This document shows, in pieces, positions 42,994 to 63,517 of a stretch of DNA of 64,000 nt. Position 1 is the stretch's first letter; every line of letters begins with the position of its first letter. Source of the stretch: Thermoanaerobaculia bacterium (GTDB lineage Bacteria > Acidobacteriota > Thermoanaerobaculia > Multivoradales > UBA5704). Location of the stretch: positions 1-64,000 of the forward strand of contig JBGAGQ010000002.1 in assembly GCA_044226625.1 (NCBI GenBank), given 5' to 3'. The notes beneath the pieces are model-generated. The model had not been told where the DNA came from, did not search any database, and saw only the letters and a list, made by a program, of their open reading frames with translations. Both the position numbers and the translations under genes were made by a program.

Positions 42994-43140
42994 CTCCACC
43001 CCCAGCTTTCGGGGCGCACGGAAAGAAGAAGTTTCATGCGCTCCCAATCGTGCAGGCTTTGTGATCCATTTTCCCGCCGCTTCTCGCCTTGGGACTCAAT
43101 GGGGTTTCACATCGAGACCGTCTCTCGAGGGAAGGATCCA

Positions 43141-46100: not shown

Positions 46101-48201
46101 CGATAGCGATCTCGACGGCGACACGCTCGTCGTGACCGCCGTGACGCAGGGCGCGCACGGTACGGTGAGCTTTGCGGGCGGCTCGGTGACGTATGTCCCT
46201 TCGGCGAACTACAGCGGTGGGGATTCGTTCGCCTACACGATCGGCGACGGCAACGGTGGGAGCGGGACGGCGACGGTTTCGGTGACGGTGACCGCGGTGA
46301 ACGACTCACCGAATGGAGGGGACGATTTCGCATCGGTCGCCGAGGATGGCTCCACGAGCGTCTCCGTGCTCGCGAACGATTCGGACGCTGACGGCGACAC
46401 GCTCGTGGTGACCGCCGTGACGCAGGGCGTGCACGGTACGGTGAGCTTTACGGGCGCCTCGGTGACTTATATCCCTTCGGCGAATTACAACGGTGGGGAT
46501 ACGTTCACCTACACGATCGTCGACGGGAACGGTGGGAGCGCGACGGCGACGGTCTCGGTGACAGTGACCGCCGTGAACGACTCACCGAATGGAGGGGACG
46601 ATTTCGTGTCGGTGGCCGAGGATGGTTCCGCCAGCGTTTCGGTGCTCGGGAACGATTCGGACCCCGACGGCGACACGCTGGTGGTGACCGCTGTGACGCA
46701 GAGCGCGCACGGTACGGTGAGCTTTGCGGGCGGCTTGGTCACCTATATCCCTTCGGCGAACTACAACGGCTCGGATTCGTTCACCTACACGATAAGCGAC
46801 GGCAATGGTGGTGCTTCGACGGCGACGGTGTCGATCATGGTGACCGCGGCAAACGACGCACCGCTTGCAGGGAATGACGTGGCCTCAGTGGTAGAAGACG
46901 GCTCGGTCAACGTCGCCGTTCTTGCGAACGACTCGGATTTAGAGGGCGATTCGCTCACGATGACCGCGGTCTCGCAGCCCGCGCACGGCACGGTGAGCTT
47001 TGCGGGCGGCTCGGTGACCTACGTCCCGTCGGCGAACTACAACGGCTCGGATTCGTTTACCTACACGATTTCCGATGGCCAGGGCGGAGCGGCGAACGGC
47101 ACGGTTTCGGTGACGGTCAGCTCCGTGAACGACCCGCCGGATGCGGTGAACGATTCGGCGACGCTCAACGAGGCGAGCGGGGGTATTGCGCTGGCGGTGC
47201 TCGCGAACGATTCCGATCTCGACGGGGCTTTGACGGTGGTGAGCGTTTCGACCCCCGCCCATGGAACCGCGACGCGCAACGCGGACAACACGATCACCTA
47301 CGTGCCGGTCGCGAGCTACAGCGGCCCGGACGTCTTCACCTACACGGTCAGCGATAGATTCGTGACGGACACGGCGACGGTGGCGATCCAGGTCAAGGAC
47401 GTGATCGGTCGAGTCGCGCTGCTCGCGACCCACAGCGTGTGGATGCAGATCGGTTCGGATTTGCTGTCCGGGGACATCGTCGCCAACGAGGTCGGGGCCG
47501 CGCCGTTCTTGAACGTTACGGAGGTGAGCATCGCCGGGAGCGCGACGACCGCGGCCGGCTGGGACGTGATCGGCAACCGGGTAACGATCGCGGCTGGAGC
47601 CACGGTGGCGAGCGACGTCTACTCGAACCAGCTGTTCAATACCGGGACGGTGAACGGCTCGCTCTACTCGCCGCCGGCGCTGCCGGTTTTCGTTCCGCTT
47701 CCGTCTTTCCAAGCCTCGAGCCCTGGCACGACCGACGTGAGCGTCGCAACGAACGGCACGCGCACGCTCGCGCCGGGGAGCTACCGCGATTTGATCGTGG
47801 GCAAGCGCGGGACCGTCACGTTCACCGGCGGTATCTACCACTTCAGGAACATCACCCTGTCGGGAAGTGAGGCGAAGCTCTACTTCTCCGCTGCGAGCGA
47901 GGTACGGGTCCAGAACAAGATCAGCACGAACAGCCTAGCGGTCATCAAGCCGGCGACCGGGGCCCCGATCACCGCCTCCTCGATCGTCTTTTACGTCGGG
48001 GGTATCAACGGGACCGCAGGCGGTCTCACCGAGGCCCCGAAAGCGGTGGAGATCGGGATCGACAGCCTCTTCTCGGCCAACCTCTATGTACCGAACGGCT
48101 CGATCTGGCTCAAGGACCGGACGCTCGCGACCGGCGCCTTCGTTGGCAAGGACGTTCGAGTGGGGCCGGATGTCCAGGTGACGTTGAACAGCGCCTGGTA
48201 G
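43141..48201 (+). CDS. Large secreted adhesin/surface protein with 10 cadherin-like (tandem-95/Big_9) repeats
   Basis: Signal peptide; 10 repeats of 'NDPPxAxxD...EDxxxxxxVLxNDxDxDGD...YxPxxNYxGxDxFxYTxxDG'; beta-rich C-terminal head. Confidence 0.88.
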   Translation: MRSMGSAGVRSFLTLCCLFVATALSGQSVAFLDAQGLPFTAPYLEGSRAYLRVVDPGASGTVALSVSAVRSGDFEPVLLGETGLGTGVFEGWISLSIGAPAADGLLQTSRDASQYPWTFDDLVATYGGSSAGAATVGSTVVTLDGGGATVASFRVGELIYVRVADALRDSTPGNDTAVVTLSTTVGSWSEYEDLVLTESGGDTGIFVGAIQTAPGDQPVQNDGTLVVRPGAAVWVQHDDANGETYSALQLSILPNEPLTLSFVDAPGQPAGTFQEFGPVELRATDSDLAGQWWGVTVRTSSDLRGDEEFVELHEEPFFSGIFRGVVTLGGRLAGAPTANDGLLEVTEIAGTSVQRDTIRAELLDCSAPPCPTATASMTGSSLRISDALGADLDSIVPPRSITFEARDRSVPFDAPVTATISSQGDSETLNLVPAWQDPVAPQLGRFRGSLQVEIGSAVPGDGRLQVLAEDVVLASRPDPLGLTVATDQAVVAAGGENQPPVATGDFAITDEDTVLTISLLGNDLDPEGQPITLDALFPPSRGTATIVDPAAGTVLYTPDPNANGLDSFVYRIRDSEGATGLGYVDVTIRSVNDPPVASNDAVTTAEDTLVSVYPLANDADPEGDTLWISSVQQGAHGQVGATATMFNYLPAANYNGTETLTYTMNDGNGGTSSATVTITITPVPDPPVAVVDNVTFAEDTVATISPLLNDLDPDGDSIVLLSVTTAFHGTLALTGIGTVTYTPVANYSGTDRFDYTIQDSTGRTATARVNLTLTPVNDPPDAVNDSVSVNEDGSTTVFVKSNDTDPDGDLTFIQSVTQGAHGAVVLSGGLPVYTPTPNYFGPDAFTYTLSDGKGGTDAATVSVTVNPVPDGPIGVADAASTPEDTSVVVNVLANDSDADGNTLTVFGVTQPAHGSANFTSSSVRYVPSANYSGPDTFTYSINDGTGRSYLGITVSITVTPVNDPPIAGNDAASVAEDGSVGVPVLANDSDLDGDTLVVTAVTQGAHGTVSFAGGSVTYVPSANYSGGDSFAYTIGDGNGGSGTATVSVTVTAVNDSPNGGDDFASVAEDGSTSVSVLANDSDADGDTLVVTAVTQGVHGTVSFTGASVTYIPSANYNGGDTFTYTIVDGNGGSATATVSVTVTAVNDSPNGGDDFVSVAEDGSASVSVLGNDSDPDGDTLVVTAVTQSAHGTVSFAGGLVTYIPSANYNGSDSFTYTISDGNGGASTATVSIMVTAANDAPLAGNDVASVVEDGSVNVAVLANDSDLEGDSLTMTAVSQPAHGTVSFAGGSVTYVPSANYNGSDSFTYTISDGQGGAANGTVSVTVSSVNDPPDAVNDSATLNEASGGIALAVLANDSDLDGALTVVSVSTPAHGTATRNADNTITYVPVASYSGPDVFTYTVSDRFVTDTATVAIQVKDVIGRVALLATHSVWMQIGSDLLSGDIVANEVGAAPFLNVTEVSIAGSATTAAGWDVIGNRVTIAAGATVASDVYSNQLFNTGTVNGSLYSPPALPVFVPLPSFQASSPGTTDVSVATNGTRTLAPGSYRDLIVGKRGTVTFTGGIYHFRNITLSGSEAKLYFSAASEVRVQNKISTNSLAVIKPATGAPITASSIVFYVGGINGTAGGLTEAPKAVEIGIDSLFSANLYVPNGSIWLKDRTLATGAFVGKDVRVGPDVQVTLNSAW
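46021..47124 (+). repeat. Four highly similar 276-nt intragenic tandem repeats
   Basis: Units start at 46021, 46297, 46573 and 46849 and share long identical stretches (e.g. GACTCACCGAATGGAGGGGACGATTTCG in two units). Confidence 0.85.
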
Positions 48202-48485: not shown

Positions 48486-51400
48486 ATGCCGGGGAGTGGG
48501 GCGTGGTCATTCGCGGGCCGTCACTTCGGGAGGACGGCGCTGTTCATTCTCGGTTCGGCAAGGATCTTTATGGGAGTCGGTGCGTCAGCCCAGACGGTCT
48601 CACTCCCCGCGACGGCCGACACCTATCTGCGCCAGAGCGCGGCGAACCAGAACCAGGGCCAGGACGTCCTGCTGCACATCCAGCAGAGCGGACACAACCG
48701 GACGCTCGTGGCGATGGACCCCGCTGCGATCGCGGCGGCGGTGGGTACGGGCCATTTGGCCTCGGCGACGCTCGAGCTCTACGTCACCGACAGTACGGCC
48801 TGGGGGACGGCGGGCCGCACGGTCGAGCTCCATCGGATGACGGCGTCTTGGACCGAGAACGGCGCGACCTGGAACTGCGCGGTCGACACGAATCCCGCCA
48901 ACGGCGCGCCGAACTGCTCGACGCAGTGGGATGGCGGGACGTTCGACGACGAGCCGACCGATTCGGTCCTCCACGTCAATACGACGAGCGGCTACGTCGC
49001 CTGGAACGTGACGGAGGACGTTCGGTCGTTCCTCGCCGGGACGCCGAACTACGGCTGGCTCGCCAAGCTCTCGGACGAAACGCTCGGTGGCAACGTGGAT
49101 TACGCGTCGCGGCAGGGGAGCGTGGCCGTCCAGCGTCCGCGGTTGGTGCTGGTGGTCGAAAGCCCTGCTTTCGATCAGGTGCCGCCCACGATCGCGATCG
49201 AGAGCCCTGTCCATCCCTTCGTGATCAACGACACGACGCCCGCGATCTCGATCGCCTACGCCGATTTCGGCAGCGGACTCGCGCTCACGACTCTCGACGT
49301 GAAGGTGGACGGCGTGGCGGCGGTTTGCACGGCGGGCGCTTCGTCGGCGAGCTGCGAGCCGGCGACGCTCGGCGAGGGAGCGCACACGATCGTCGCCACG
49401 GTGCGCGACGTGGCGGGGAACGAAGCGACCGCGACGCGCGGCTTCACCCTGCTGATCGGTCCCGGTCTGCGGACGGCGACGTTTGTCGCGACGGCCGACA
49501 CGACGCTCAAGAAGAGCTCGGCGAACCAGAACTACGGAGATGAGCCGACGCTGCGGCTGCGGCAGAGCGGCAAGAACCGTTCGATCGTGCGATTCGGGAC
49601 GGCCGAGGTGTTGCAGCTGGTGAACCAGGGGACGCTTCGCTCGGCGAGCCTCGAGCTTTTTCTCGGCGTAAGCAGCGGCTGGGGCAAGAGCGGCCGAAAC
49701 GTCGATGCCCACCGGCTGACCGCGGATTGGAGCGAGGGGGGAGCGACCTGGAACTGCGCGATCGATTCGATCCCGAGCAACGGCGCGCCGAACTGCGCGA
49801 CGCAATGGGTCGGTGGCACGTTCGCCGCGGCGCCGACGGCGACGGTACTGCACACCAACGGCCAGTCCGGAACCGTCTCTTTCGACGTCACCGCGGATCT
49901 CGCGGCGGTCGTGGCGGGAGGAACCGACTTCGGCTGGTTGGTGAAGAAGACCGACGAGACGAAGAGCGGCAAGGCGGATTACGCGTCGCGGGAAGCGGGA
50001 GCCGCGACCGCGCCCCGGCTGGTGGTGCTGTTCGAGGTGCCGTCCGGGGGCGACGCCACGCCGCCCGACATCGCGATCGTGCGCCCGGCCGGTACGGTTT
50101 ACAACCAGCATCCGGTGGTCGTCGGCCTGCGCCTCGCCGACGCGGGGTCGGGGATCGACTTCGAAAGTCTCACGGTATCCGTGGGTGGAGTCGACGTCTC
50201 GTCGTACTGCGGTGGCACGGCAGAGGGCTCGGAGTGTCGGTTCTCCGCTCCGGCGCCGGGTCCTCTCGAAATCGCGGCGAGCGTTCGCGATCGAGCCGGC
50301 AACTCGGCTTCGGCTTCGGCCACGTTCGATCTGGTCGACGACCCGAGCCCTCCGGCGATAGACGTCGTCTCGCCGCTTTCGACTTCCCTCACCGAGGGGG
50401 AGATTCCCGCGACGTTCGAGGTGAGCCTCGACGACGCCGGTTCGGGGATCGCACCGGGAAGTTTCGTGGTCACGCTCGATGGCTCCGACCTCTCGGGGTG
50501 CACCCTCGAAACCGCCGGTGCCTCCTGCGCTTTGCCGTCGAATCTCGGCTTGGGAGGGCATCCGCTCGAAGCTTTCGTCCGCGACCGCGCCGACAACCAA
50601 TCCTCCGTCTTCCTGGAGCTCAACGTCGGACCCGAGCCCCACGCGCCAGAGATCGCGGTGACCGGTCCCACCGGGGATCTGATCCACGGACGGACGTTGC
50701 CGGAGCTGGTCATCGAGTACGCAGACGCGCAGAGCGGCATCGACCCCACCTCGTTCCGCCTCGAAGTGGACGGCGTCGAGGCGACCGCCGGATGCGCGGC
50801 CGGTCCGACGTCGGCGACCTGCCCGTCGCGACCGCTCGATCCAGGTCGCCATTCGATCGTCGCCGCGATCTCCGATCACCGCGGCAACGTGGGCTCCGCG
50901 AATCGACAGCTGGAGCTCTCGATCGAGCTTGCGGTTTCGATCACCGAACCGTCGGAAGCGATGTTGGTCCGCAGCGAGACCGTTCGCTTGGCGGGAACCG
51001 TCTCGCCGCTCGCCACGTCGGTGACGGTCGGCTCGATCCCGGCGAGCCTGTCCGGCGGTACCTGGGTGGTCGAGAACCTGCCGTTGCGGGAAGGGGGCAA
51101 CACTCTCACGGTCGTCGCCCGCTCTCCCGCGGGCGGGATCGGATCGGCGACGGCGACGGTGGTCCGAGATACCGAGGCGCCGCGGGTGGTCATCCAGTCG
51201 CCTGCGGACGGCTCGATCTCGTCGGCAGCCGAGGTCTTCGTGAGTGGCGAGGTCATCGATCCCGCTTCGAGCAACGTCGAGCATCCGCCGCTCACCGTGA
51301 CGGTCAACGGCGAGCCCGCGACGGTCGACCTGCGAAGCTTCGTCCTGCCCGAGGAGCTGCTTCATCCGGGCGAGAATCGGATCGAGGTCGAGGCGACGGA

Positions 51401-54400
51401 CACGGCGGGAAACGTCGGCCGGGCTTCCGTCACGGTCTCTTATCTGGCGGACGCTCCTGCGCACGTCGAGCCGATCTCGGGAAATTTTCAGGACGCGGAG
51501 ATCCGACAGGCCGTTCCCGAGCCTCTGGTGGTTCGGGTCGCGGACGCCTTCGGTCGCTCGTTGCCCGGCCGCTCGGTCGAGTTTCGGGTGTCGCGCGGGG
51601 ACGGTTCGGTCGTTTCGTACCCCGACCGAGGCCGGAAGCTGTCGGTGCTCACCGACGAAAACGGTCTGGCCGAGGTGCGCTTCGAGCTCGGCTCCCGTGC
51701 GGGCGCCGGAAACCACGAGGTCACGGTGACCCTGCCCGGAATCCCGGGGGCGGCGGTCTTCTGCGCTTCGGCGCGGGCCGCGAAGGCGAAATGGATCCAG
51801 CCGATCGTCGGCAACGACTTCTCTGGAGAGCGGACCGGCACCGCCGGACGGCCGCTTCCGAAGCCCTTGCTGGTTCAGGTTTTCGACGAGCGTGGCAATC
51901 CGGTCTCGGGAGTCGAGGCCACGTTCGACGCGATCGCCGGTGGGGGGAGCTTCGACGGTCTGCCGCAGGTGCGCCGGGTCACCGATCGCGAAGGGAAGGC
52001 GAGCGCGGTCTATATCCTCGGCCCAGGCGAAGGGACGAACAACAACGTGGTCTCGGCGACGTTTGCGACGAACGAGGCGGCGCCCGCGGTCTTCAGGATC
52101 AGCGGCCGCGTGCCGGGACCTGCCGAGCAGACCTCCGTCTCGGGCATCCTGCTCGATCCGGAGGACGGCCCGATCCCGGGCGCGCGAATTCACGTCGGGA
52201 CTCTCGAAACCCGGACCGACGCCGAAGGGCGTTTTCACCTGACGGGGGTGCCGGTGGGCACCATCCATCTGGAGATCGACGGCTCGACGGTCACCCGGCC
52301 GGGCACTTGGCCGCCGCTCGGCTACGAGCTGGTCACGGTCGCGGGGCGGGACAACGGGGTCGGCAAGCCGCTTCGCTTGCCGCAGATCGACAGCGCGGGC
52401 AAGATGCGGGTCGGCGGCGACCATGACGTGACGATCCCGATCCGCGGGGTGGCGGGAGCGACACTCACGGTCTTCGCCCATTCGGTGACGTTTCCGGATG
52501 GCAGCCACGAGGGCGACGTGGCGTTCACGCAGGTGCCGGCGCAGAAGGTGCCGATGATCGCGCCGATGAACGCCGGATTCATGTTGGCCTGGACGATCCA
52601 GCCGGCGGGCGTCCGCTTCGAACCTCCCGCCCAGGTCTCGATCCCGAATTTCGGTCTCCCCGGAGGAGGCGCCAACGTGCCCGGGATGACCGGCGAGATC
52701 TTCTCTTTCGACCACGATCTCGGAGAGTTCGTGAGCGCGGGCACCGCGTCGATCACCGAGGATGGCCGGATGATGCGCTCGAATCCTGGCATGGGGATCA
52801 CTAAGACCGGCTGGGGTGGCTGCCCGCATCCTCCGGCACCGCCCGCGAGCGCCTGCGGCGAGGGTACCTGCAACGACTGTCTCGGAAACCAGCCGATCGC
52901 GAAGGCAAAGCTCGGACCCGTCGTGGCCAGGGCCAACGGGCGGGACATGCCGAGGTTGGTCCGGAAAGGTGAGCCGGTCAGCTTCACCCTCGACGTCACG
53001 AACCCGCCGTCCTGCGCGCTCGACGTGACGTGGACCTTCGGCGAAGGCTCGCCCGTGAAAGGGGATCCCGGGAGCCCTTACTCCGCGAGCCACACCTTCG
53101 CGAAGGAAGGCGCTTTCACCGTCCAGGTGGAAGCGAAGTGTCCGGAATGCGACGACGGGCCGCAGATCGACACGATCGATCTGGGAGTAATCGACCCGGC
53201 GCCGAGCGAGCTCACGTTCAAAGGAGCCGGTTTCCACGAAGTCCTCCAAGACACCGGGGCCGGAGCCTATAAAGCGCCTCACTGGAAGGACATGAGCAGC
53301 CCGCCGAACGGCACCGCCGAGGACATGGGAGATCACCGCTTTCCGGTCATCTATAAGCGGGGCAGCATGCCGATCGTGGACTTGAAGGTGGACGCCAAAG
53401 CGGCGGGACTGACCGCGACTCTGGTCGCGGACGTGCGGATCCGCGGCGGCGTGACGAGCCCCGCGCTCCATTTCCCCGCGAAGAAGGTCTCTCTCGAAGG
53501 CCGGCTGCTCACGTTGAAAGACCTGGCCTCGGATGCCGCGCTTCCCAACGCGATCGACCGGCTGGATCCGTTCGAGATCTCCTGGGAGATCTCGTTCGAT
53601 GCCGGAAACAGCTGGGAAGATCTGGGCAAGACTTCGAATCGAATCTACGTCACCCTCGACGACCCCCTCCCAGCCGCGGCGGCTTCGCTGTACGAGACGG
53701 TGGTCGACATCGGCAGCCGTAATGCGGCCCACCAGAGCTCGCCCGGTTCGGCGGTCACTGCGATTTTCGAAGATTTCATGGACCGCGTCGTGACTCGAAA
53801 GGAACGCGACGGCTTCAACAGGCCCGACGGCAAGACGATGCAATATTGGTCGACCGACCGCGACCTCAATGAAGTGATTCGGACCGGGGGTTGCCAGCTG
53901 CTCTCGAGGATGATCAATCCCAAGAGCGGCGCCGCCGCGAATCTCAACGGAATCGGAACCTGCCAGGCCTGGGCGGCGCTGCTGCACAGGTCGATCCAAG
54001 CGATGGGCATCGAAGGCTCCCAAGTCTTCGAGGTCAAGCCCGACGTGACCAAGGTACCGAAAGCGTCGTCGATGCTCATCAGCAAGTGGCTGTTCGCGCC
54101 GTTGGTTCGGCCGGGAGCGAACAGGACGCTCGATTCGGAGCCCGACGTATCCCGGGACGAGGTCGATTGCAGCCATGGTCAAACCGGAATCAACCCCGAC
54201 AAGGTCTGTATCTATCCCGGAGAGGATCGCGCCATCGACTCGAACGTCCTGCCGGACGACGTCGTCTCGGACCTTGGGGCGCATCCCGGCGAGCCCTATC
54301 CGTACCGGCTCTTCGATCGAGTCATCTATCGAAAGGGCGATGTGTTCGATCTCGGGAACCATGCGGCGCAAGGAACCGCGGACTCTCCGAGCATCTTCGA

Positions 54401-54599
54401 CAATCACTTCATCATGACGTTCCAGACCCAGGGCGTTTACGACCCGTCGTACGGCCGATGGTTCGCCGATCCGGTGGAGTTCGGCAACCAGTCCGTCGAC
54501 GGTTTCATCATGGAACAGAAAACCCCGGGGCTGCCCACGAGCGCGCGGAAGAAGAGCCAAACCGACAACGAGCTTCTCTTCGTTCCACAGGGCTTCTGA
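48486..54599 (+). CDS. Giant secreted protein A: 2x DNRLRE(CBM96-like) + Ig repeats + carboxypeptidase-regulatory-like + PKD + C-terminal transglutaminase-like domain
   Basis: GGAGG RBS, signal peptide ending ASA-Q; 'ADTYLRQSAANQNQG...GATWNC' occurs twice; C-terminal 'GTCQAWAALL', 'FDNHFI', 'VYDPSYG'. Confidence 0.8.
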   Translation: MPGSGAWSFAGRHFGRTALFILGSARIFMGVGASAQTVSLPATADTYLRQSAANQNQGQDVLLHIQQSGHNRTLVAMDPAAIAAAVGTGHLASATLELYVTDSTAWGTAGRTVELHRMTASWTENGATWNCAVDTNPANGAPNCSTQWDGGTFDDEPTDSVLHVNTTSGYVAWNVTEDVRSFLAGTPNYGWLAKLSDETLGGNVDYASRQGSVAVQRPRLVLVVESPAFDQVPPTIAIESPVHPFVINDTTPAISIAYADFGSGLALTTLDVKVDGVAAVCTAGASSASCEPATLGEGAHTIVATVRDVAGNEATATRGFTLLIGPGLRTATFVATADTTLKKSSANQNYGDEPTLRLRQSGKNRSIVRFGTAEVLQLVNQGTLRSASLELFLGVSSGWGKSGRNVDAHRLTADWSEGGATWNCAIDSIPSNGAPNCATQWVGGTFAAAPTATVLHTNGQSGTVSFDVTADLAAVVAGGTDFGWLVKKTDETKSGKADYASREAGAATAPRLVVLFEVPSGGDATPPDIAIVRPAGTVYNQHPVVVGLRLADAGSGIDFESLTVSVGGVDVSSYCGGTAEGSECRFSAPAPGPLEIAASVRDRAGNSASASATFDLVDDPSPPAIDVVSPLSTSLTEGEIPATFEVSLDDAGSGIAPGSFVVTLDGSDLSGCTLETAGASCALPSNLGLGGHPLEAFVRDRADNQSSVFLELNVGPEPHAPEIAVTGPTGDLIHGRTLPELVIEYADAQSGIDPTSFRLEVDGVEATAGCAAGPTSATCPSRPLDPGRHSIVAAISDHRGNVGSANRQLELSIELAVSITEPSEAMLVRSETVRLAGTVSPLATSVTVGSIPASLSGGTWVVENLPLREGGNTLTVVARSPAGGIGSATATVVRDTEAPRVVIQSPADGSISSAAEVFVSGEVIDPASSNVEHPPLTVTVNGEPATVDLRSFVLPEELLHPGENRIEVEATDTAGNVGRASVTVSYLADAPAHVEPISGNFQDAEIRQAVPEPLVVRVADAFGRSLPGRSVEFRVSRGDGSVVSYPDRGRKLSVLTDENGLAEVRFELGSRAGAGNHEVTVTLPGIPGAAVFCASARAAKAKWIQPIVGNDFSGERTGTAGRPLPKPLLVQVFDERGNPVSGVEATFDAIAGGGSFDGLPQVRRVTDREGKASAVYILGPGEGTNNNVVSATFATNEAAPAVFRISGRVPGPAEQTSVSGILLDPEDGPIPGARIHVGTLETRTDAEGRFHLTGVPVGTIHLEIDGSTVTRPGTWPPLGYELVTVAGRDNGVGKPLRLPQIDSAGKMRVGGDHDVTIPIRGVAGATLTVFAHSVTFPDGSHEGDVAFTQVPAQKVPMIAPMNAGFMLAWTIQPAGVRFEPPAQVSIPNFGLPGGGANVPGMTGEIFSFDHDLGEFVSAGTASITEDGRMMRSNPGMGITKTGWGGCPHPPAPPASACGEGTCNDCLGNQPIAKAKLGPVVARANGRDMPRLVRKGEPVSFTLDVTNPPSCALDVTWTFGEGSPVKGDPGSPYSASHTFAKEGAFTVQVEAKCPECDDGPQIDTIDLGVIDPAPSELTFKGAGFHEVLQDTGAGAYKAPHWKDMSSPPNGTAEDMGDHRFPVIYKRGSMPIVDLKVDAKAAGLTATLVADVRIRGGVTSPALHFPAKKVSLEGRLLTLKDLASDAALPNAIDRLDPFEISWEISFDAGNSWEDLGKTSNRIYVTLDDPLPAAAASLYETVVDIGSRNAAHQSSPGSAVTAIFEDFMDRVVTRKERDGFNRPDGKTMQYWSTDRDLNEVIRTGGCQLLSRMINPKSGAAANLNGIGTCQAWAALLHRSIQAMGIEGSQVFEVKPDVTKVPKASSMLISKWLFAPLVRPGANRTLDSEPDVSRDEVDCSHGQTGINPDKVCIYPGEDRAIDSNVLPDDVVSDLGAHPGEPYPYRLFDRVIYRKGDVFDLGNHAAQGTADSPSIFDNHFIMTFQTQGVYDPSYGRWFADPVEFGNQSVDGFIMEQKTPGLPTSARKKSQTDNELLFVPQGF

Positions 54600-54603
54600 C
54601 GCG

Positions 54604-55587
54604 ATGGGTCCCTCCATGATCGCCTGTTATTTCGCGGCCCTGCTGATCCTCGCGCCTCCGGCTCCGGCCGGGGCCACGAGAGAGCCGGAGATTCTCTCCA
54701 GCCAAAGCGCAGGCGCCGAGGGGAAGGTTTGGGTGCTGGAGCTTCGCGAAAGCCGGGAATCGGGCTCCCGATTCGAGCTTTTCCAGCGTTTCCGGAACGG
54801 CAAGAAATCGCCGACGTTGTGGTCGAAAGAGGTCTCCGTCATGACCCGGCCGTACGTCGAATATTGGCGTGCGACCTTTGCCGTAAACCCGGACGGCGGG
54901 TCGGCTTGGGTCGCCTCCCTCCGCTCGACGAGCGGGACGTTGGCGATCGATCTGGATCTCCTCGTCTCGGGCGGTTCTCCGACGGCAACTCGCCGCATCG
55001 ACATCCGTCGTGCGAGCTCCGGCGTTTGTCGTCCCGAGCTCTTTTCGATCGTCGCGACCGGTGAGGAGGCGCTGATCGGGCTTCGCTGCGGTGGACCGAC
55101 GCGATGGATCGGATATTCGGAGCGAGAGCACGACTGGTTCCAGCTGGGTCCGGAGCGACGAAAGGTTGCGGGCCGTTCCGGCAGCGGCAAACTGGTCGAC
55201 GGTTGGCCGAAGGATGACGGCGTGCCCATCGATCCCAACGCCGACTGGCCGCCGCCGAAGATCGCCATCGTCGAGCCGTCGCGGGAAGTCGTTTCCGATC
55301 CGAATTTCTCGAGCGTCGTCCTGTCTTATGAGGATCCCGACGATCCGATCGATCCTTCGTCGCTCAAGGTCGGAATCGACGGCGTTCCTCTGTCCTGCAC
55401 CTTCGGCTTCGCCAAGATCACCTGCGCCGTCGAGAACCTCGAAGAGGGCTTTCACACCCTCTCGGCGGAGATCCGTAGCCGATCCGATTATTGGGCCACT
55501 ACGGCGTTCAACTTCATCTATCGACCGGACGCGGGGTCTCCGCCGTCGGCGGTCGGTGGCGGACCGCCGGTTGGAACGGTTCCTTGA
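54604..55587 (+). CDS. Exported protein, candidate immunity/partner of protein A; C-terminal Ig module
   Basis: Starts 4 nt after A's stop; signal peptide; C-terminal Cys-pair Ig module like those in the trunk of A/B. Confidence 0.65.
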   Translation: MGPSMIACYFAALLILAPPAPAGATREPEILSSQSAGAEGKVWVLELRESRESGSRFELFQRFRNGKKSPTLWSKEVSVMTRPYVEYWRATFAVNPDGGSAWVASLRSTSGTLAIDLDLLVSGGSPTATRRIDIRRASSGVCRPELFSIVATGEEALIGLRCGGPTRWIGYSEREHDWFQLGPERRKVAGRSGSGKLVDGWPKDDGVPIDPNADWPPPKIAIVEPSREVVSDPNFSSVVLSYEDPDDPIDPSSLKVGIDGVPLSCTFGFAKITCAVENLEEGFHTLSAEIRSRSDYWATTAFNFIYRPDAGSPPSAVGGGPPVGTVP

Positions 55588-55726: not shown

Positions 55727-58700
55727 ATGGCGGGTTCCGGATTGCGAAGGGCGGTGGGTCTTCTTGCGGCCGCGGTGGCCCTCCTCGCGGGCGGGAGGGC
55801 GTCGGCTCAAACGGTCTCGATCCCCGCGACGGCTGATACCTACCTGCGCCAAAGCTCGGCGAATCAAAACCAAGGCCAAGACGTCCTGCTGCACATCCAG
55901 CAGAGCGGCCACAACCGGACGCTCGTGGCGATGGACCCCGCGGCGATCGCTTCCGCCGTGGGGACCGGGCACCTGGCCTCGGCGACGCTCGAGCTCTACG
56001 TCACCGACAGCACGGCGTGGGGGACGGCGGGCCGCACGGTCGACCTCCACCGGATGACGGCGCCTTGGACCGAGAACGGCGCGACCTGGAACTGCGCGGT
56101 CGACACGAATCCCGCCAACGGCTCTCCGAATTGCGCGACGCAGTGGGACGGCGGAACGTTCGACGACGAGCCGAGCGACTCGGTCCTCCACCTGAATACG
56201 ACGAGCGGCTACGTCGCCTGGAACGTGACGGAGGACGTTCGGTCGTTCCTCGCCGGGACGCCGAACTACGGCTGGCTCGCGAAGCTCTCGGACGAGACGC
56301 TCGGTGGCAATGTGGATTACGCGTCGCGGCAGGGGAGCGTGGCCGTCCAGCGTCCGCGGTTGGTGCTGGTGGTCGAAAGCCCTACTTTCGATCAGGTGCC
56401 GCCCACGATCGCGATCGAGAGCCCCGACCATCCGTTCGTGATCAACGATGCGACGCCCGCGATCTCGATCGCCTACGCCGATTTCGGCAGCGGACTCGCG
56501 CTTACGACGCTCGACGTGAAGGTGGACGGCATGGCGGCGGTTTGCACGGCGGGCGCTTCGTCGGCGACGTGTGAGCCGGCGGCGCTCGGCGAAGGCACGC
56601 ATACGATCGTCGCCAAGGTGCGCGACGCAGCGGGGAACGAAGCGACCGCGACGCGCGGCTTCACCCTTCTGATCGGTCCGGGTCTGCGGACGGCGACGTT
56701 CGTCGCGACGGCCGACACGACCCTCAAGAAGAGCTCGGCGAACCAGAACTACGGCGGCGAGGCGACGTTGCGGCTGCGGCAGAGCGGCAAGAACCGTTCG
56801 CTCGTGCGTTTCAATACGACCGAGGTCTTACAGCTGGTTAGCCAGGGCACGCTCCGCTCTGCGTTTTTGGAGCTGACGCTCCAGGTGAGCAGCGGATGGG
56901 GGACGGCGGGGCGGCCGATCGACGTGCACCGGCTGACCGGGGACTGGAATGAGGCGGGCGCGACCTGGAACTGCGGGATCGACTCGATCCCGACCAACGG
57001 CGCGCCGAACTGCGCAACCCAGTGGGCGGGCGGTACGTTCGCCACACCGACGGCGACGGTGGTGCACAGGAACGGGCAGCTGGGGACCGTATCGTTCGAC
57101 GTGACCTCGGACCTCGCGGCCATCGTGGCGGGGGGGAGCGACTACGGCTGGTTGGTGAAAAAGACGGACGAGACGAAGAGCGGGCGGGCGGACTACGCAT
57201 CGCGCGAGACTGGAGCGGCGAACGCGCCGCGCCTGGTCGTGGTGGTCGACGTGCCGGACGGCGGGGGCGATACGACGCCGCCGACGATCGCGATTACGGC
57301 GCCAACGTCGGCGCTGATCTTCAACGTTTCGACCCCGGAGATTCGAGTGGAGTACTCCGATGTGGGTTCGGGGCTCGCCCTGGCGAGCCTGCGCGTCTCG
57401 ATCGACGGCTCGGTCCTCACGGGCTGCTCGGTCGGTGCCGCGGCCGCGACCTGCGCGCCGAGCTCCTTGGCGGACGGTAGCCACCTCGTCGAGGCCGAGA
57501 TCGCCGACGCGGCCGGAAACCGTGGCTCGGCTGGTGCGAGCTTCACGATCACGCGGGACGACGATCCGCCGACGATCGACATCGTGGCGCCGGAAGGAAC
57601 GCTTTTCAACCCCTCCGCGACCGAGATCAGCGTCGAATTCACCGACGAGCTATCGGGGATCGACGTTGGCGGTCTCGCCGTCTCGATCGACGGCGCGACG
57701 CTCGGGGGGTGCGCCGTCACCGAGTCGACCGCGACTTGCGCCGCGGGATCGCTCGCCGCGGGTACCCACGTGATCCGCGCCGAAGTTCACGATGGCGCCG
57801 GTAACCTCGCGAGCGCGGTCGAGAACGTGGAGATCGTGCGCGATACGGAGGCTCCAATCCTTGCGATCACGTCGCCGCCTGTGGCTGGGAGCACCGCCGG
57901 TGCCGTGAGCGACCTCGAGGTCACGTTCGCCGACGCGGGCTCTGGGGTGGCGATCGAGACGTTCCGCGCGACCGTGGACGGCGTCGTGCTGTCGAGCTGC
58001 GCCACGTCGCTCAGCGGTGCGGCCTGTACGCTTTCGAGCCTCGGACCGGGCAGCCATTCGATCGCGGTCGAGATCGCAGACCAGGCGGGCAATCATGGAA
58101 CCGCCAGTCGTGACCTCTCGGTGGCGCCGGAGCGGGTCGCGCCGTTCCTGCGGATTCTCGCGCCGACGGGAGCTCCCATCGACGGTGGACAGATCCCCGC
58201 CATCGAGCTCGCCTACGGCGATGCGCAAAGCGGTATCGATTCCGCCTCGCTCCGCGTCACGCTCGACGAGCGGGACGTCACCTCGTCTTGCCAGGCGGGG
58301 TTGACCTCGGCCCACTGTGGCCCGCAATTCGTTGGTTCCGGCGCGCATACGATCGTCGCCGAAATCTCCGACACGTTGGGAAATCCGGCGCGGGCGCTGC
58401 TCGACGTGACCACTTCCTTGGCGCTTTCGCTCGCGATCACCGCGCCGGAAAGCGGTGCGATCGTTCGAGAACCGACAGTTCGTCTGGCAGGGACCGTTTC
58501 GCCGCAGGCGACATCCGTGTCAGTGGGCGACGTACCGGCGCAGGTGAGCGGAGGCCTTTGGGTCCTACCGGCGATGCCGATCCGCGAGGGGGGCAATACC
58601 CTCACCGTCGTCGCTCGGTCGCCACAGGGAGGCGTCGGAACCGCGACCGTCGCGATCATCCGCGACTCCGAAGCACCTCGGGTAGCGATCCTCACTCCAC

Positions 58701-61700
58701 GCGACGGTTTCGTCACCAGCGCCTCGCAGATCGTCGTCTCGGGCGATCTGGTCGACGCGGTCTCGACTTCGTCGAAACAGCGCGCGCTCAAGGTTCTGGT
58801 CAACGAGCGCGAGGCGACGGTCGAGCGGAAGAGCTTCGTGCTCACCGACCACTTGCTGCTGCCGGGTGAGAATCGGATCGAGGTGACGGCGGAAGACGAG
58901 GCGGGCAACGTCGGCCGCTCGGCGGTCACGGTGCGCTACGTGCCCGATGCGCTGGCGCGGATCGAGGAGATCTCCGGCAATTTCCAGGAGGCCGAGAGCC
59001 GCGACACGCTCGACCAACCGCTGGTGGTGCGGGTGGTCGACTTCCTCGGGCGTCCGCTCGCGGGGCGGACGGTCGATTTCGCGGTCACGCGAGGCGACGG
59101 CGCGGTGCTGTCGTTCCCGGACGCCGCGCGCCGGCTCTCGGCGGTGACCGACGAAGAAGGGCTCGCGGCGATGCGCTTCGCGCTCGGCACGCGGGCCGGC
59201 GCGGGCAACCACGAGGTGACGGTGAGCTCGGTGGGGATTCCGGGCTCGGTGCTGTTTTGCGCCTCGGCGCGGCCGAAAGCGGCCAAGGACATCCACCCGA
59301 TCGTTGCGACCGACTTCCAGGGGGCAAAGACGGGCCCGGCGGGGCAGGCTCTGCCGAAGCCGCTGTTCGTCCAAGTGTTTGACGGCTTCGGCAATCCGGT
59401 GGCGGGGCAGGCGGTGGTGTTCCGTTCGGTCGAAGGGGGCGGCACGTTCGCCGGCGCCTCCGAGCTGCGGGCGACGACCGATGACGAAGGCAAGGCCGGA
59501 GCGGTGCTCACGCTCGGTCCCGACGAGGGGATCAACAACAACCGGGTGGAAGCGAGCCTGGAGGGCTCGACGGTGCTGCCGGCGGCGTTCGTGATCAGCG
59601 GCATGATTCCAGGGCCGGCGGAGCTGACCGCGCTTTCCGGGATCGTTCTCGATCCGAGCGACGCGCCGGTGCCCGGAGCGCGGATCCACATCGGCTCGAA
59701 CGTGACGCTCACGGACGCCGAAGGGCGGTTTCGCTTGAACGGCGTGCCGGTGGGCACGGTGCACGTCGAGATCGACGGCTCGACGGTGACGCGTCCGGGG
59801 ACCTGGCCGCCGCTCGGCTACGAGCTGGTGATGATCTCCGGGCGGGTGAACGACCTGGGCAAGCCGATGCGTCTGCCGCAGATCGACGACGCGGGAAAGA
59901 AACGTGTCGGCGGCGACCAGGACGTGACGATTCCTATCCAAGGCGTGGCGGGCGCGACGCTCACGGTTTACGCCCACTCGGTTACGTTCCCGGACGGGAG
60001 CCACGAAGGGGACGTGGCGTTCACCCAGGTGCCTGCGCAAAAGGTGCCGATGGTGGCGCCGCAGGACGCGGGATTCATGTTGGCTTGGACGATTCAACCG
60101 GCGGGGGTTCGTTTCGATCCGCCGGCGCGGGTGTCGATCCCGAACTTCGGGGCTCCGGGAGGCGGCGGCAATCCGCCGGGATTGACCGGAGAGATCTTCT
60201 CGTTCGATCACGATCTCGGGGAGTTCATCAGCGCGGGGACGGCTTCGATCACGGAAGACGGCCGGATGATGATGTCGAACCCGGGAATGGGGATCTCGAA
60301 GACGGGCTGGGGGGGCTGTCCGCATCCGCCGGCGCCGCCGGCGCAGGCCTGCGGCTCGGGAACCTGCACGATCTGCCCCGCGGATGGCGGTCCGCCGGTA
60401 TCGAACTGCGGGGCCTGTCAGGTATGCACGGATCAAGGCTGTCGAGATCGCAAGATCGACAGCGTCACCGCCGAAGGTGAACCGATCGATCCGGACGCGC
60501 CGGCCGGTGCCTCTTTACTTCAGCCGAACGACGGTGGCGGAGACGGCCAGGCGCAGGAGCCGGTCTATGTCGGGGAAGGGGAGCCTCTGCGTCTGCTGTC
60601 GGACCGGCTCCGAGGCGATTGCCCTTCCGGGCAGATCAACGCGACTTGGTCGTTCGGCGACGGTTCCGAACCCAAGGATGGGCGAACGGTCGAGCACACC
60701 TATGACGAAGAGGGCGAACACATGGCCGAAGTGCGCCTGGAGTGCGTCTGCCCCACGACGCTCAAGGCGGCTGGGCCTCCGGTGACCGACTCGATCGGCA
60801 TTCAGGTCGTCAAAGCGATGGATGGCTTCTACAAAATGATCGAGAAGGAAGAGAAGCTCACCATCGTCGACAAGGACGAGGACGGAGACGGCAAGAAGGA
60901 CAACTTCTTCCGGGTCCTGGGGGGCGCGCGGTTGCGTCTCGAGCTCAATCCGCCGGCCGTACTTCAGGCGCAGGTTACGGAGTACCGGTGGCAGGTCGAC
61001 GAAGAAGACGGTCACGGCGGCTTCTACGACGGCTACAGCCCTAATGCCAACGGGCTGCATGACGAGCAGCTCAAGGGACCGGACTTGCGCCAAATCTACT
61101 GGCAATCGCCGGATGGCGTGAACAAAGACTTTTTCATCGACGTGTACCTCAAGCTGCGCGATGTCGAGGCTCCTCTGCACCTTCGCCGCCGGGTCAAGAC
61201 GCGCGTTCTAGCGGCCGGCGTCGAAGATGGCGACGATGTGAAGATGCTTCAATCGCAACTGCGTCTCTTCGGCTTCACCGGCGGCACGACGCCCGGCTAT
61301 GCGGGAACGCCGATCAACCCGGACGGCAACTTCGGCGGAAAGACGACGCGCGGCGTGATGCGCTTTCAAGACGTCGATGATCTCGCGACTTCCGGCGTGG
61401 TGATGGATGACACGTTGATCCAGCTCGCTCGGCACTGGCGGGATTTCTACTATGCCTATGAAGCGTTTCCCAACGATCCGAGGATCGACAAGTTCCATTC
61501 GGACTTCGAAACTTGGGTGACCGCCGCCGCGGACGATCTCGCCATGACCTACACCGACGCCGTGGTCCAGATTCTGCGTCCTGGAACGGCGGGGGACGAC
61601 GGGCGCAAGGACTTGATCCGGGCGTGGGCAAGGCAGGAGTCCGACCAGGGTCAGTGGGGCTACGGCGGTCACAACTTCCGTATCACCATGGGGGCCGCGG

Positions 61701-62458
61701 ACGAGGAAGGAAGTATCGGGTTCGATCAGATCGTCAACACCCACAAGTACGGAACGCTTAACATTGCCTCGATCGAGGATCTGAACCTCTACCACCCGAA
61801 GGACAACGTTCGGGGGTTCGCCGTCTTCTCTGCCGACCACGATGCCGAGGCCAAGAGCGGCGGGGGATTCCACAAAGGTTTCGGCGACGGCAGCTACACG
61901 ACCAGCGGCCATCCGACGGACTATCCCCGGCTTGCGAACTACACCGACGATACCAGGGCGATCCTGTTGAAATCGGTGATGGCGTACAACCGCGGGTCGG
62001 GGGACAGCGCCGCACTGCGTGAACCGTGGGCGGACATGTTGAGGAACTACGACGCCTTGCCGGCGAACACGAAGATGCACGGCCGGCGGTCGGCGATGCG
62101 TTACGCGCTGGACGTGACCGCGAGAGGCGGCGTGGGCCACGGTTGTTTCAACTGGATCGAGAAGGTGATCACCACCGGCCCCGACGACAAGTGCGACTCG
62201 ACCCGAGCCGGCTCGGACGTCAGCGTGGCGACCCTGCAACCTGGAGTGAAAAATCAGGTCTGCATCTATCCGGGAGTTCAAACTCTCAACCTTGGCAACC
62301 GCCAGCACGACGTCCGGCGCATCGCCAACCTCCATTCTGCGGCCGACGCCAACGACCACATGACGACATGGACCTACTCCTATTGCGAATCGGAATGGCT
62401 CGCGCTGACGACCTGGGAAGTCCGTCGCTTGCAACAACTTCCCGCCATCTTGCCGTGA
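55727..62458 (+). CDS. Giant secreted protein B: same trunk as A + PKD + peptidoglycan-binding + lytic transglycosylase/lysozyme-like C-terminus
   Basis: GGGAGGG RBS before ATG 55727; trunk paralogous to A; PG_binding_1 'GDDVKMLQSQL...DGNFGGKTTRGVMRFQ...GVV'; SLT-like 'LIRAWARQES', 'GSIGFDQI', 'MAYNRG'. Confidence 0.8.
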   Translation: MAGSGLRRAVGLLAAAVALLAGGRASAQTVSIPATADTYLRQSSANQNQGQDVLLHIQQSGHNRTLVAMDPAAIASAVGTGHLASATLELYVTDSTAWGTAGRTVDLHRMTAPWTENGATWNCAVDTNPANGSPNCATQWDGGTFDDEPSDSVLHLNTTSGYVAWNVTEDVRSFLAGTPNYGWLAKLSDETLGGNVDYASRQGSVAVQRPRLVLVVESPTFDQVPPTIAIESPDHPFVINDATPAISIAYADFGSGLALTTLDVKVDGMAAVCTAGASSATCEPAALGEGTHTIVAKVRDAAGNEATATRGFTLLIGPGLRTATFVATADTTLKKSSANQNYGGEATLRLRQSGKNRSLVRFNTTEVLQLVSQGTLRSAFLELTLQVSSGWGTAGRPIDVHRLTGDWNEAGATWNCGIDSIPTNGAPNCATQWAGGTFATPTATVVHRNGQLGTVSFDVTSDLAAIVAGGSDYGWLVKKTDETKSGRADYASRETGAANAPRLVVVVDVPDGGGDTTPPTIAITAPTSALIFNVSTPEIRVEYSDVGSGLALASLRVSIDGSVLTGCSVGAAAATCAPSSLADGSHLVEAEIADAAGNRGSAGASFTITRDDDPPTIDIVAPEGTLFNPSATEISVEFTDELSGIDVGGLAVSIDGATLGGCAVTESTATCAAGSLAAGTHVIRAEVHDGAGNLASAVENVEIVRDTEAPILAITSPPVAGSTAGAVSDLEVTFADAGSGVAIETFRATVDGVVLSSCATSLSGAACTLSSLGPGSHSIAVEIADQAGNHGTASRDLSVAPERVAPFLRILAPTGAPIDGGQIPAIELAYGDAQSGIDSASLRVTLDERDVTSSCQAGLTSAHCGPQFVGSGAHTIVAEISDTLGNPARALLDVTTSLALSLAITAPESGAIVREPTVRLAGTVSPQATSVSVGDVPAQVSGGLWVLPAMPIREGGNTLTVVARSPQGGVGTATVAIIRDSEAPRVAILTPRDGFVTSASQIVVSGDLVDAVSTSSKQRALKVLVNEREATVERKSFVLTDHLLLPGENRIEVTAEDEAGNVGRSAVTVRYVPDALARIEEISGNFQEAESRDTLDQPLVVRVVDFLGRPLAGRTVDFAVTRGDGAVLSFPDAARRLSAVTDEEGLAAMRFALGTRAGAGNHEVTVSSVGIPGSVLFCASARPKAAKDIHPIVATDFQGAKTGPAGQALPKPLFVQVFDGFGNPVAGQAVVFRSVEGGGTFAGASELRATTDDEGKAGAVLTLGPDEGINNNRVEASLEGSTVLPAAFVISGMIPGPAELTALSGIVLDPSDAPVPGARIHIGSNVTLTDAEGRFRLNGVPVGTVHVEIDGSTVTRPGTWPPLGYELVMISGRVNDLGKPMRLPQIDDAGKKRVGGDQDVTIPIQGVAGATLTVYAHSVTFPDGSHEGDVAFTQVPAQKVPMVAPQDAGFMLAWTIQPAGVRFDPPARVSIPNFGAPGGGGNPPGLTGEIFSFDHDLGEFISAGTASITEDGRMMMSNPGMGISKTGWGGCPHPPAPPAQACGSGTCTICPADGGPPVSNCGACQVCTDQGCRDRKIDSVTAEGEPIDPDAPAGASLLQPNDGGGDGQAQEPVYVGEGEPLRLLSDRLRGDCPSGQINATWSFGDGSEPKDGRTVEHTYDEEGEHMAEVRLECVCPTTLKAAGPPVTDSIGIQVVKAMDGFYKMIEKEEKLTIVDKDEDGDGKKDNFFRVLGGARLRLELNPPAVLQAQVTEYRWQVDEEDGHGGFYDGYSPNANGLHDEQLKGPDLRQIYWQSPDGVNKDFFIDVYLKLRDVEAPLHLRRRVKTRVLAAGVEDGDDVKMLQSQLRLFGFTGGTTPGYAGTPINPDGNFGGKTTRGVMRFQDVDDLATSGVVMDDTLIQLARHWRDFYYAYEAFPNDPRIDKFHSDFETWVTAAADDLAMTYTDAVVQILRPGTAGDDGRKDLIRAWARQESDQGQWGYGGHNFRITMGAADEEGSIGFDQIVNTHKYGTLNIASIEDLNLYHPKDNVRGFAVFSADHDAEAKSGGGFHKGFGDGSYTTSGHPTDYPRLANYTDDTRAILLKSVMAYNRGSGDSAALREPWADMLRNYDALPANTKMHGRRSAMRYALDVTARGGVGHGCFNWIEKVITTGPDDKCDSTRAGSDVSVATLQPGVKNQVCIYPGVQTLNLGNRQHDVRRIANLHSAADANDHMTTWTYSYCESEWLALTTWEVRRLQQLPAILP
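55808..56810 (+). repeat. Near-identical DNA duplication of ~48591-49590 (5' trunk of proteins A and B)
   Basis: Long identical runs, e.g. 'gacgtcctgctgcacatccagcagagcgg' and 'ctggaacgtgacggaggacgttcggtcgttcctcgccgggacgccgaactacggctggctcgc'. Confidence 0.9.
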
Positions 62459-63341: not shown

Positions 63342-63517
63342 TGACCTGCTTGGGGTCTGTCGGTCGGAGGCGAACACGCCTACGCCTACGTTCGATCTCA
63401 ACGCCGGGTCCCTGGTGAGGGTCGAATGGGAACGTGCTGGCGGTGGCGAGCCGTAGTTGGGCGGGAGCGTTCTCGCAGTCGAAATTCTTTGGCGTGTTGC
63501 GTGATGGAGGATTGATC

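Follow-up and report, generated by a model that had tools for sequence, protein, structure and literature searches.

A motif shared by two tandem giant genes of a Thermoanaerobaculia bacterium as the probable edge of a ZU5/GAIN_B-like domain in front of exchangeable tips

Why do two giant neighbouring genes cease so abruptly to resemble each other? The question is raised by a stretch of 64,000 nucleotides (nt) of contig JBGAGQ010000002.1 (assembly GCA_044226625.1) of a Thermoanaerobaculia bacterium, hereafter the window, in which two tandem genes, A and B, encode large proteins that share the 30-residue motif NPGMGI[TS]KTGWGGCPHPPAPPA.ACG.GTC and diverge behind it. The original prediction held that this motif plays the role of VENN in CdiA or of DPxG in Rhs, and that the domain preceding it could be an autoproteolytic release module. 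We regard as probable, with moderate confidence, that the motif forms the C-terminal border of a ZU5/GAIN_B-like domain closing a conserved stalk, that the variable, enzyme-like tips behind it are exchanged as a cassette together with the downstream gene, and, with lower confidence, that the domain itself is non-catalytic. The coordinates of all features are collected in Table 1.

Protein identity between A and B was computed in windows of 50 codons. It amounts to 0.80, 0.92, 0.82 and 0.94 in the successive windows covering A residues 1254–1453, falls to 0.38 from A 1454 and then remains between 0.20 and 0.44 through the C-terminal end. Both the block of near-identity ending at the motif and the collapse of similarity past it are thus as first described, although calling the two proteins "almost identical" was slightly generous: conservation is strong, but identity across the 154-residue domain is 87%. 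The motif had likewise been placed at the right sites, but starting 6 nt late and ending 9 nt (A) or 3 nt (B) beyond the 30 residues. The conserved block is an island, because the upstream part of A (502–1253) is merely 0.36–0.66 identical to B; the first ~300 codons of the two genes are 0.92–0.96 identical. This likeness is the homology of paralogues, and chance is ruled out. The turn at the heart of the motif, with its Gly-Trp pair (GW), reads I-T-K-T-G-W-G-G-C-P-H in A and I-S-K-T-G-W-G-G-C-P-H in B. A Cys-rich spacer followed by a PKD domain, also part of the original prediction, is found in both proteins, with four cysteines within 22 residues past GW in A and eight within 44 residues in B, and with the PKD domains recognised by Pfam.

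The block that ends at the motif contains a beta-sandwich of ~155 residues for which Pfam has no model. In A, a CarboxypepD_reg domain (1217–1265, Pfam/NCBIfam) lies upstream of it, residues 1290–1470 match no Pfam or NCBIfam family, and the protein gives no match to the Pfam ZU5 model. A profile built from alignment A1, comprising 31 diverse members aligned with MAFFT, was searched against the PDB; the best match was ankyrin-3 (expectation value, E, 8.7e-4), covering central strands only. This was the sole significant sequence-profile match, and five of the seven sequences listed at E ≤ 10 were ankyrins. The Pfam ZU5 model was matched weakly by 4 of the 31 members (best E 0.027, under the curated cut-off). 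The AlphaFold2 model of the domain is all-beta, with a predicted local distance difference test (pLDDT) score of 84.4 and a predicted template modelling (pTM) score of 0.79, and the top rows returned for it by Foldseek were ankyrin ZU5, UNC5b, NLRP1 FIIND and GAIN, all at E 3.9e-3 or weaker. Z scores for the same model, supplied by the exhaustive structural aligner VIA, were 10.4 (3f59_A, root-mean-square deviation 2.9, 124 residues aligned), 10.3 and 9.9 for three entries of ankyrin ZU5, 8.0 for the GAIN domain of BAI3, 5.5–7.2 for other GAIN domains, 6.5 for UNC5b, 6.1 for the ZU5 domain of ZO-1, 5.9 for CARD8 FIIND, 5.4 for NLRP1 and 4.1 for Nup98. The sandwich therefore superposes on ZU5 and on GAIN subdomain B, and the suspected GAIN/ZU5-like fold is borne out by profile search, structure model, Foldseek and VIA together. 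In structure, the family comes closest to the ZU5 domains of ankyrin, UNC5b and ZO-1 (Z 10.4 to 6.1). These resemble it also in having no autoproteolytic motif; they differ from it in being cytoplasmic protein-binding modules of animals, and share only 11–14% sequence identity with it.

The family is large. Searching a library of 1.84 billion cluster representatives, we obtained 3088 clusters (at 50% identity) matching the domain at E ≤ 1e-3, of which 1704 reach E ≤ 1e-10, and a second search gave 90 proteins of like length. The few matches whose source is named are labelled Acidobacteriota, Thermoanaerobaculia, Granulicella and Candidatus Angelobacter, the weakest being labelled Cyanothece. 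Within a sample of 301 genomes of the phylum, 18 carry the domain at E ≤ 1e-10, in up to seven copies; the window's own genome has three. The consensus around the motif in 219 relatives is [ILVM]-x-S-[DN]-P-G-x-G-[IV]-x-[KR]-[AS]-G-W-[GH]-G-x-x-P-P-P-P-P-x-x-C. Gly and Trp are invariant in all 31 sequences of the MAFFT alignment, and GW lies at most 20 residues from its projected position in 220 of 222 proteins; D-H-D at A 1409–1411 is a further invariant element. The tail then opens with a run of prolines (Pro at each of positions +6 to +10 in 114–183 of 218 proteins) and is rich in cysteine, with a mean of 8.2 Cys in its first 80 residues as compared to 0.6 in the whole domain. As the last three strands of the model comprise residues 140–143, 149–151 (I-T-K) and 154–158 (W-G-G-C-P), the motif corresponds to the final hairpin and last strand of the folded domain, followed by the linker. 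The number of Cys in the knot is even in 71 of the 106 proteins with an early Cys (at most four residues past GW) and odd in 79 of the 105 that have none. This parity suggests that the early Cys (A residue 1446, B residue 1743 of the open reading frame, ORF) is a disulfide partner of the knot, forming a staple across the poly-proline linker.

Is the edge seen in A and B a property of the family? We compared 67 pairs of relatives with domains at least 85% identical and tails of at least 200 residues, calling tips unrelated where BLAST found no similarity beyond tail residue 150. By this measure the tips are unrelated in 38 pairs, homologous in 26 and partly related in 3. The first 20-residue window with less than 50% identity begins at +1 to +15 in 26 pairs and at +16 to +60 in 24, identity dropping below 50% within 60 residues past GW in 50 of the 67. 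The remaining breakpoints fall at +61 to +160 (six pairs), beyond +160 (four) or inside the domain (three), and four pairs have none within 300 residues. The motif is accordingly best read, from these alignments, as marking a family-wide junction zone past which the tips differ.

Further information comes from a genome of the same genus, G266, which carries the same tandem pair (A′ and B′). In DNA alignments, A departs from the B/A′/B′ type ~25 residues past GW, and A′ and B′ part later; the paralogues of G266 have in common a block of ~560 residues (synonymous divergence, dS, 0.41–0.42) that ends within ~40 residues past GW. Tip and downstream gene co-vary in all four comparisons available. 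B and B′, with domains 94% identical, have tips 68% and downstream genes 49% identical, whereas A and A′, with domains 84% identical, have unrelated tips and unrelated downstream genes. Similarly, the copies C95a and C95b have tips 50% identical followed by HEAT-repeat genes 35% identical, and C47 and C95 share neither tip nor downstream gene. Contig C95 of G266 also carries what looks like a detached module. Behind a full-length gene and the HEAT-repeat gene downstream of it lies a 5′-truncated orphan copy of 593 residues, which begins exactly at CarboxypepD_reg, has neither stalk nor signal-peptide-like N-terminus, and is 82.4% identical in nucleotides to the full gene upstream over 1091 nt before diverging. 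This orphan has a HEAT-repeat gene of its own, which shares 35% identity with that of the full gene. Orphan C-terminal/immunity modules of CDI and Rhs loci are laid out in this way.

In G190, a short frame with a ZU5-like domain was considered as another orphan module and not counted, being a fragment that ends ~37 residues past the domain match with another frame next to it. At this locus (L037:10159-13217, in a complete genome of the phylum), the domain lies in a frame of 482 residues immediately followed by one of 537, possibly representing a disrupted gene.

These results allow a scheme to be proposed. The giant proteins, with signal-peptide-like N-termini, have a conserved stalk running from Glucodextran_B through further modules to Big_1, CarboxypepD_reg and the ZU5-like domain, past which a poly-proline linker, a Cys-rich knot and usually a PKD domain lead to an enzyme-like tip differing among copies. 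Tip and downstream secreted-protein gene would move together as one cassette, with the conserved DNA of CarboxypepD_reg and the ZU5-like domain serving for homologous recombination; this would make the domain plus linker a functional analogue of the VENN/DPxG junction. With lower confidence, we infer that the ZU5-like domain serves as a non-catalytic structural or docking module. The tips and downstream genes may have putative toxin and immunity roles.

The systems that served as the point of comparison, CdiA with its VENN and Rhs with its DPxG(L), combine a conserved scaffold, a demarcating sequence, variable tips, a co-varying downstream gene and 5′-truncated orphans keeping the junction. 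Scaffold, demarcating sequence and variable tips have a counterpart here, as does a downstream gene that co-varies with the tip in the four comparisons, and one clear orphan is that of G266. On the other hand, neither VENN nor DPxGL occurs at the junction in A or B, which reads S[DN]PGxG[IV]x[KR][AS]GW[GH]G.xPPPPP; type V secretion, type VI secretion and an Rhs shell are absent; and the junction comprises an entire folded domain together with its linker, with breakpoints spread over ~60 residues. The proposed kinship with VENN/DPxG as a point of tip exchange therefore holds in part: the family-wide zone, the joint change of tip and downstream gene and the G266 orphan speak for it, while the age of the block shared by A and B (see below) and the spread of breakpoints do not. 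By analogy, the family can be described as functioning like a VENN/DPxG junction while being a member of neither class, and as a variant of the bacterial ZU5/MAIN domains.

What are the tips? Tip A has no Pfam match, and a profile search of the PDB with it returned no matches. It has invariant Cys, His and Asp at tip positions 268, 416 and 428, a pattern that we take to be transglutaminase/papain-like; Transglut_core is weakly matched by two of five tip A homologues (E 0.077), and a structure prediction from a five-row alignment was unusable (pLDDT 37.1). For tip B, the profile gave one chance-level match in the PDB (E 2.2). Its invariant residues resemble the ES, GLMQ and AYNxG motifs of lytic transglycosylases, and SLT is weakly matched by one of eight homologues (E 0.085). 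The leads given by a language model (Atlas) are DUF4280 (0.81) and Transglut_core (0.75–0.76) for tip A, and PG_binding_1 clusters with SLT or muramidase (0.86–0.91) for tip B; these leads stay unverified, because neither tip was found in shorter proteins. Among relatives, Pfam recognises Peptidase_M15_3, PG_binding_1, Polysacc_deac_1, PLA2G12, DUF6531 with RHS, LVIVD, DUF6973 and LamG in the tips, and these diverse tips sit behind one core, Big_1-CarboxypepD_reg-ZU5-like. For instance, the domain is N-terminal to DUF6531 and RHS repeats in P0039 and precedes Peptidase_M15_3 in P0006. The genes downstream of A and B, Adn and Bdn, match no family. Bdn is 49% identical to the gene following the B-type orthologue in the same-genus genome, and tip B and Bdn co-occur, each being present in the same 2 of 301 genomes.

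Two observations on these regions may be added. The B-type tips (62425–62455; alignment A3) have a similar extreme C-terminus, the last residue being Pro in eight of eight; six end in L-P-x-x-I/L-P, P0029 in R-P-M-T-I-P, and P0007 and P0010 in C-P. The C-terminal ~100 residues of Adn form an Ig-like module with 30–35% identity to several modules of the Big_13 type in A, B and relatives, and the small gene and the giant genes therefore share a building block.

A rival account would see in these proteins ordinary modular surface enzymes, degrading polymers or remodelling cell walls, whose catalytic domains were shuffled over long times, with the ZU5-like domain as a conserved spacer and the downstream genes as unrelated accessories. 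We consider this possible, but less probable than the cassette scheme. The N-terminal CBM96/DNRLRE and Ig-like modules suit carbohydrate binding, the tips of relatives include polysaccharide deacetylase and LamG, and Zhang et al. 2012 (PMC3482391) place ZU5 in surface proteins with glycohydrolases, lipases and phosphodiesterases. Two negative results fit it as well and weigh against the cassette scheme: neither the two tips nor Adn and Bdn contain a recognised toxin or immunity family, and the tips were not found on other delivery scaffolds, none of 1955 (tip A) and 7279 (tip B) word-sharing candidates yielding either tip on a shorter protein at E ≤ 1e-3. The same scheme is weakened by several further points. 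The 67 pairs are not mutually independent, and their breakpoints are scattered across linker, Cys knot and PKD with no one fixed motif; the co-variation comes from four comparisons in two related genomes; no orphan module exists in the window or its genome, where the three copies all lie in frames of 1660–2460 residues; the assignments of the tips are drawn from invariant residues, weak Pfam matches and language-model leads; and the extreme conservation, with an invariant GW at the position of a scissile turn, would also fit an unrecognised processing chemistry. Nevertheless, shuffled surface enzymes do not readily explain the joint change of tip and downstream gene in four of four comparisons, the orphan 5′-truncated module with its own HEAT-repeat gene, the unrelated tips in 38 of 67 close-domain pairs, the continuation of P0039 into DUF6531 and RHS repeats, or the peptidoglycan-related modules (PG_binding_1 in B, Peptidase_M15_3 in P0006).

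Does the domain cut itself? It would then cleave at or beside the GW turn, and either free the tip or hold it non-covalently through the last strand, as in GAIN, FIIND and MAIN. The fold class does host autoproteolytic chemistry. In Zhang, de Souza, Anantharaman, Iyer and Aravind (2012; PMC3482391), ZU5 domains are treated as autopeptidases with a conserved C-terminal active-site motif, and are predicted as such in bacterial toxins and surface proteins. According to the preprint of Brogan and Rudner (bioRxiv 10.64898/2026.05.12.724683), MAIN domains, which have adhesion or enzymatic ectodomains on one side and a surface anchor on the other, were shown to cleave themselves at H-F|S, and GAIN, FIIND, Nup98 and MAIN use H-x-S/T. 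As to position, model residues 7–149 are aligned with the ZU5 fragment of NLRP1 (end of chain at 1212), residues 7–165 with the CARD8 chain through 320, and residues 13–159 with Nup98 719–870. Set against the cleavage sites of these three proteins, the aligned ranges suggest that G-W lies between the penultimate and the last strand and that the invariant pair matches the scissile turn of the cleaving relatives, a correspondence that is approximate since only first and last aligned residues were used.

The catalytic residues tell a different story. In A and B, the stretch between -25 and +8 of the GW pair contains no H-x-S/T/C. Among the 219 relatives, H-x-S stands at the canonical position (-3 to -1) in 4, Ala occupies the nucleophile position in 124, and 169 have no H-x-S/T/C near the turn. 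Alternative thiols are not general either: H-x-C occurs at +2 to +4 in 36 (a separate motif tally of GW-H-x-C gives 34), the xxCxH form seen in A and B (GW-G-G-C-P-H) in 7, and a Cys within three residues past GW in just 107, with the parity of the knot pointing to a disulfide role for it. Moreover, the structures that match best belong to ankyrin ZU5 domains, which do not cleave (Z about 10), FIIND reaching only 5.4–5.9. Self-cleavage by the known mechanism is thus unsupported, because H-x-S/T is missing from A, B and most of the family, and the suggested autoproteolytic release module is not borne out; we think an autoproteolytic domain unlikely, despite the fold, the placement of GW and the GW-H-x-C and GW-G-G-C-P-H variants. 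More doubtful still is a variant of this idea in which a large unmodelled ZU5/GAIN branch, with an invariant K-x-G-W turn in place of H-x-S/T and a poly-proline rod and disulfide knot behind it, would serve diderm Acidobacteriota as a non-canonical latch that releases swappable C-terminal effectors. Such a latch could depend on thiols (GW-H-x-C / GW-G-G-C-x-H subsets), force or a partner, and would be a Gram-negative counterpart of MAIN with opposite polarity, freeing the C-terminal piece.

A non-catalytic domain in front of exchangeable tips, which we prefer, also sets the family apart from the two described groups closest to it. The bacterial ZU5 domains of polymorphic toxins and surface proteins (PMC3482391) and this family are alike in being ZU5-class beta-sandwiches of large Sec-exported proteins with adhesion and enzymatic or toxin domains, and P0039 has the architecture described there, with the domain before DUF6531 and RHS. 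The present family differs in having no conserved nucleophile, and in placing the domain directly before a variable tip and not at the base of the RHS filament. With MAIN (10.64898/2026.05.12.724683), it has in common a GAIN_B-like fold in large signal-peptide proteins with N-terminal adhesion or enzymatic modules, some fused to toxins or RHS. MAIN domains have the conserved H-X-S, proven cleavage and a subsequent anchor (sortase signal, SLH or wall-binding), whereas the present family lacks H-X-S, and its domain leads by way of linker, Cys knot and PKD to an enzyme-like tip, 480–560 residues long in A and B. The invariant K-x-G-W turn and the poly-proline rod are also distinctive of this family. 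Pfam and NCBIfam, at E ≤ 0.01, show no surface anchor family in either A or B, the PG_binding_1 domain of B being the sole wall-binding module. The words Acidobacteria and ZU5 are absent from the main text of the MAIN preprint, and a literature search on this family returned nothing beyond these two sources.

Synonymous and non-synonymous divergence, obtained as Nei-Gojobori estimates, bear on why the edge is sharp. Between A and B, dS is 0.91 in the ZU5-like domain, with a ratio of non-synonymous to synonymous divergence (dN/dS) of 0.094; the corresponding values are 0.20 and 0.13 in the N-terminal 300 codons and 1.54 and 0.40 in linker plus PKD, and dS is 1.19 in the Ig-rich middle. The dN/dS of the domain (0.094, 0.035, 0.115, 0.047 and 0.073) is the lowest of any block in five of five comparisons. 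The block shared by A and B is therefore old and kept by purifying selection, and its dS of 0.91 and dN/dS of 0.094 show that it is no recent recombination tract. Two circumstances would make the edge sharp: no other part of the protein is as strongly constrained as the ZU5-like domain, and the tail past it is either swapped out or fast-evolving. A recent A/B gene-conversion tract of which the motif marks the chance endpoint is highly improbable: conversion does appear in these genes (N-terminal codons at dS 0.20, and the longer shared block of the G266 paralogues), but the ZU5-like block has a dS near that of the divergent middle, its third positions are just 0.56–0.66 identical, and the identical edge recurs in hundreds of unrelated family members. 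Recent recombination as the source of this block was accordingly rejected.

The N-terminal tract deserves a separate remark. A 48636–49535 (residues 51–350) and B ~55853–56752, which cover the DNRLRE/CBM96 and Big_13 region, are 93–95% identical at the DNA level with dS 0.20, as compared to 0.7–1.5 in the remainder of the two genes; this looks like recent gene conversion of tandem paralogues.

Under the proposed scheme, if correct, a class of domains familiar from death-domain proteins and adhesion G-protein-coupled receptors of animals would mark the exchange point of widespread polymorphic surface effectors, with 3088 clusters, no Pfam model and a home in a poorly studied soil phylum. The signature S-[DN]-P-G-x-G-[IV]-x-K-x-G-W followed by a poly-proline run would then be a handle with which new C-terminal domains of enzymes or toxins could be found along with their partner genes, and the self-cleaving MAIN and GAIN domains could be compared with members of the family as naturally "catalytic-dead" relatives. 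Should the domain cleave without H-x-S/T after all, it would represent a new autoproteolytic chemistry for the fold.

Table 1. Features of the tandem genes A and B and of their downstream genes (positions in the window; aa, amino acids).
Feature	Position	Strand	Remarks
Gene A, 2037 aa	48486..54599	+	Signal-peptide-like N-terminus, 2x CBM96/DNRLRE, Big_13, Glucodextran_B, Big_1, CarboxypepD_reg, ZU5-like domain, linker, PKD, C-terminal tip
A: ZU5/GAIN_B-like beta-sandwich, aa 1290-1447	52353..52826	+	No Pfam model
A: motif, aa 1433-1462	52782..52871	+	Invariant G1442-W1443 = nt 52809-52814, turn preceding last strand
A: poly-Pro linker and short Cys-rich element, aa 1447-1465	52824..52880	+	4 Cys counting C1446
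A: PKD domain, aa 1490-1551	52953..53138	+	Pfam E 2.7e-8
A: variable tip, aa 1559-2037	53160..54596	+	Invariant Cys/His/Asp at tip positions 268/416/428; transglutaminase/papain-like reading tentative
Adn, 327 aa	54604..55587	+	Signal-peptide-like N-terminus; begins 4 nt past A; C-terminal Ig-like module
Gene B, 2243 aa	55727..62458	+	Start per database protein P0005; open frame from 55091
B: ZU5/GAIN_B-like domain, ORF aa 1587-1744	59849..60322	+	
B: motif, ORF aa 1730-1759	60278..60367	+	
B: poly-Pro linker and Cys-rich element, ORF aa 1743-1784	60317..60442	+	8 Cys
B: PKD domain, ORF aa 1825-1882	60563..60736	+	Pfam E 1.2e-6
B: PG_binding_1 domain, ORF aa 2047-2109	61229..61417	+	Pfam
B: C-terminal catalytic-looking tip	61424..62455	+	Invariant E72, S97, G99, F100, Q102, Y188, N189; SLT-like lytic transglycosylase reading tentative
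Bdn, 291 aa	62466..63341	+	Signal-peptide-like N-terminus; begins 7 nt past B

As for the surroundings, no dedicated secretion system was found among the window neighbours, which include a urocanase, a histidine kinase, a TMEM260-like glycosyltransferase, an esterase and a cadherin-like repeat protein. Directly upstream of A and in the same orientation (43036–48201) lies the gene of another giant surface protein, of 1721 residues, with ten Big_9/cadherin-like repeats (Pfam E 2.5e-220). An antisense open frame of 2005 residues (48600–54617, minus strand) covers almost all of gene A, where the local GC content is 63–69%; long antisense open frames are frequent in GC-rich DNA, and for this reason we take it as a non-gene. 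Finally, the gene past Bdn (63434–64000, open at its 3′ end) is 35% identical over 131 residues to a 1070-residue LVIVD/TSP3/Big_7 protein (L004:10213-13425) whose gene, on a different contig of this genome, follows the third ZU5-like paralogue; it may be a conserved neighbour.

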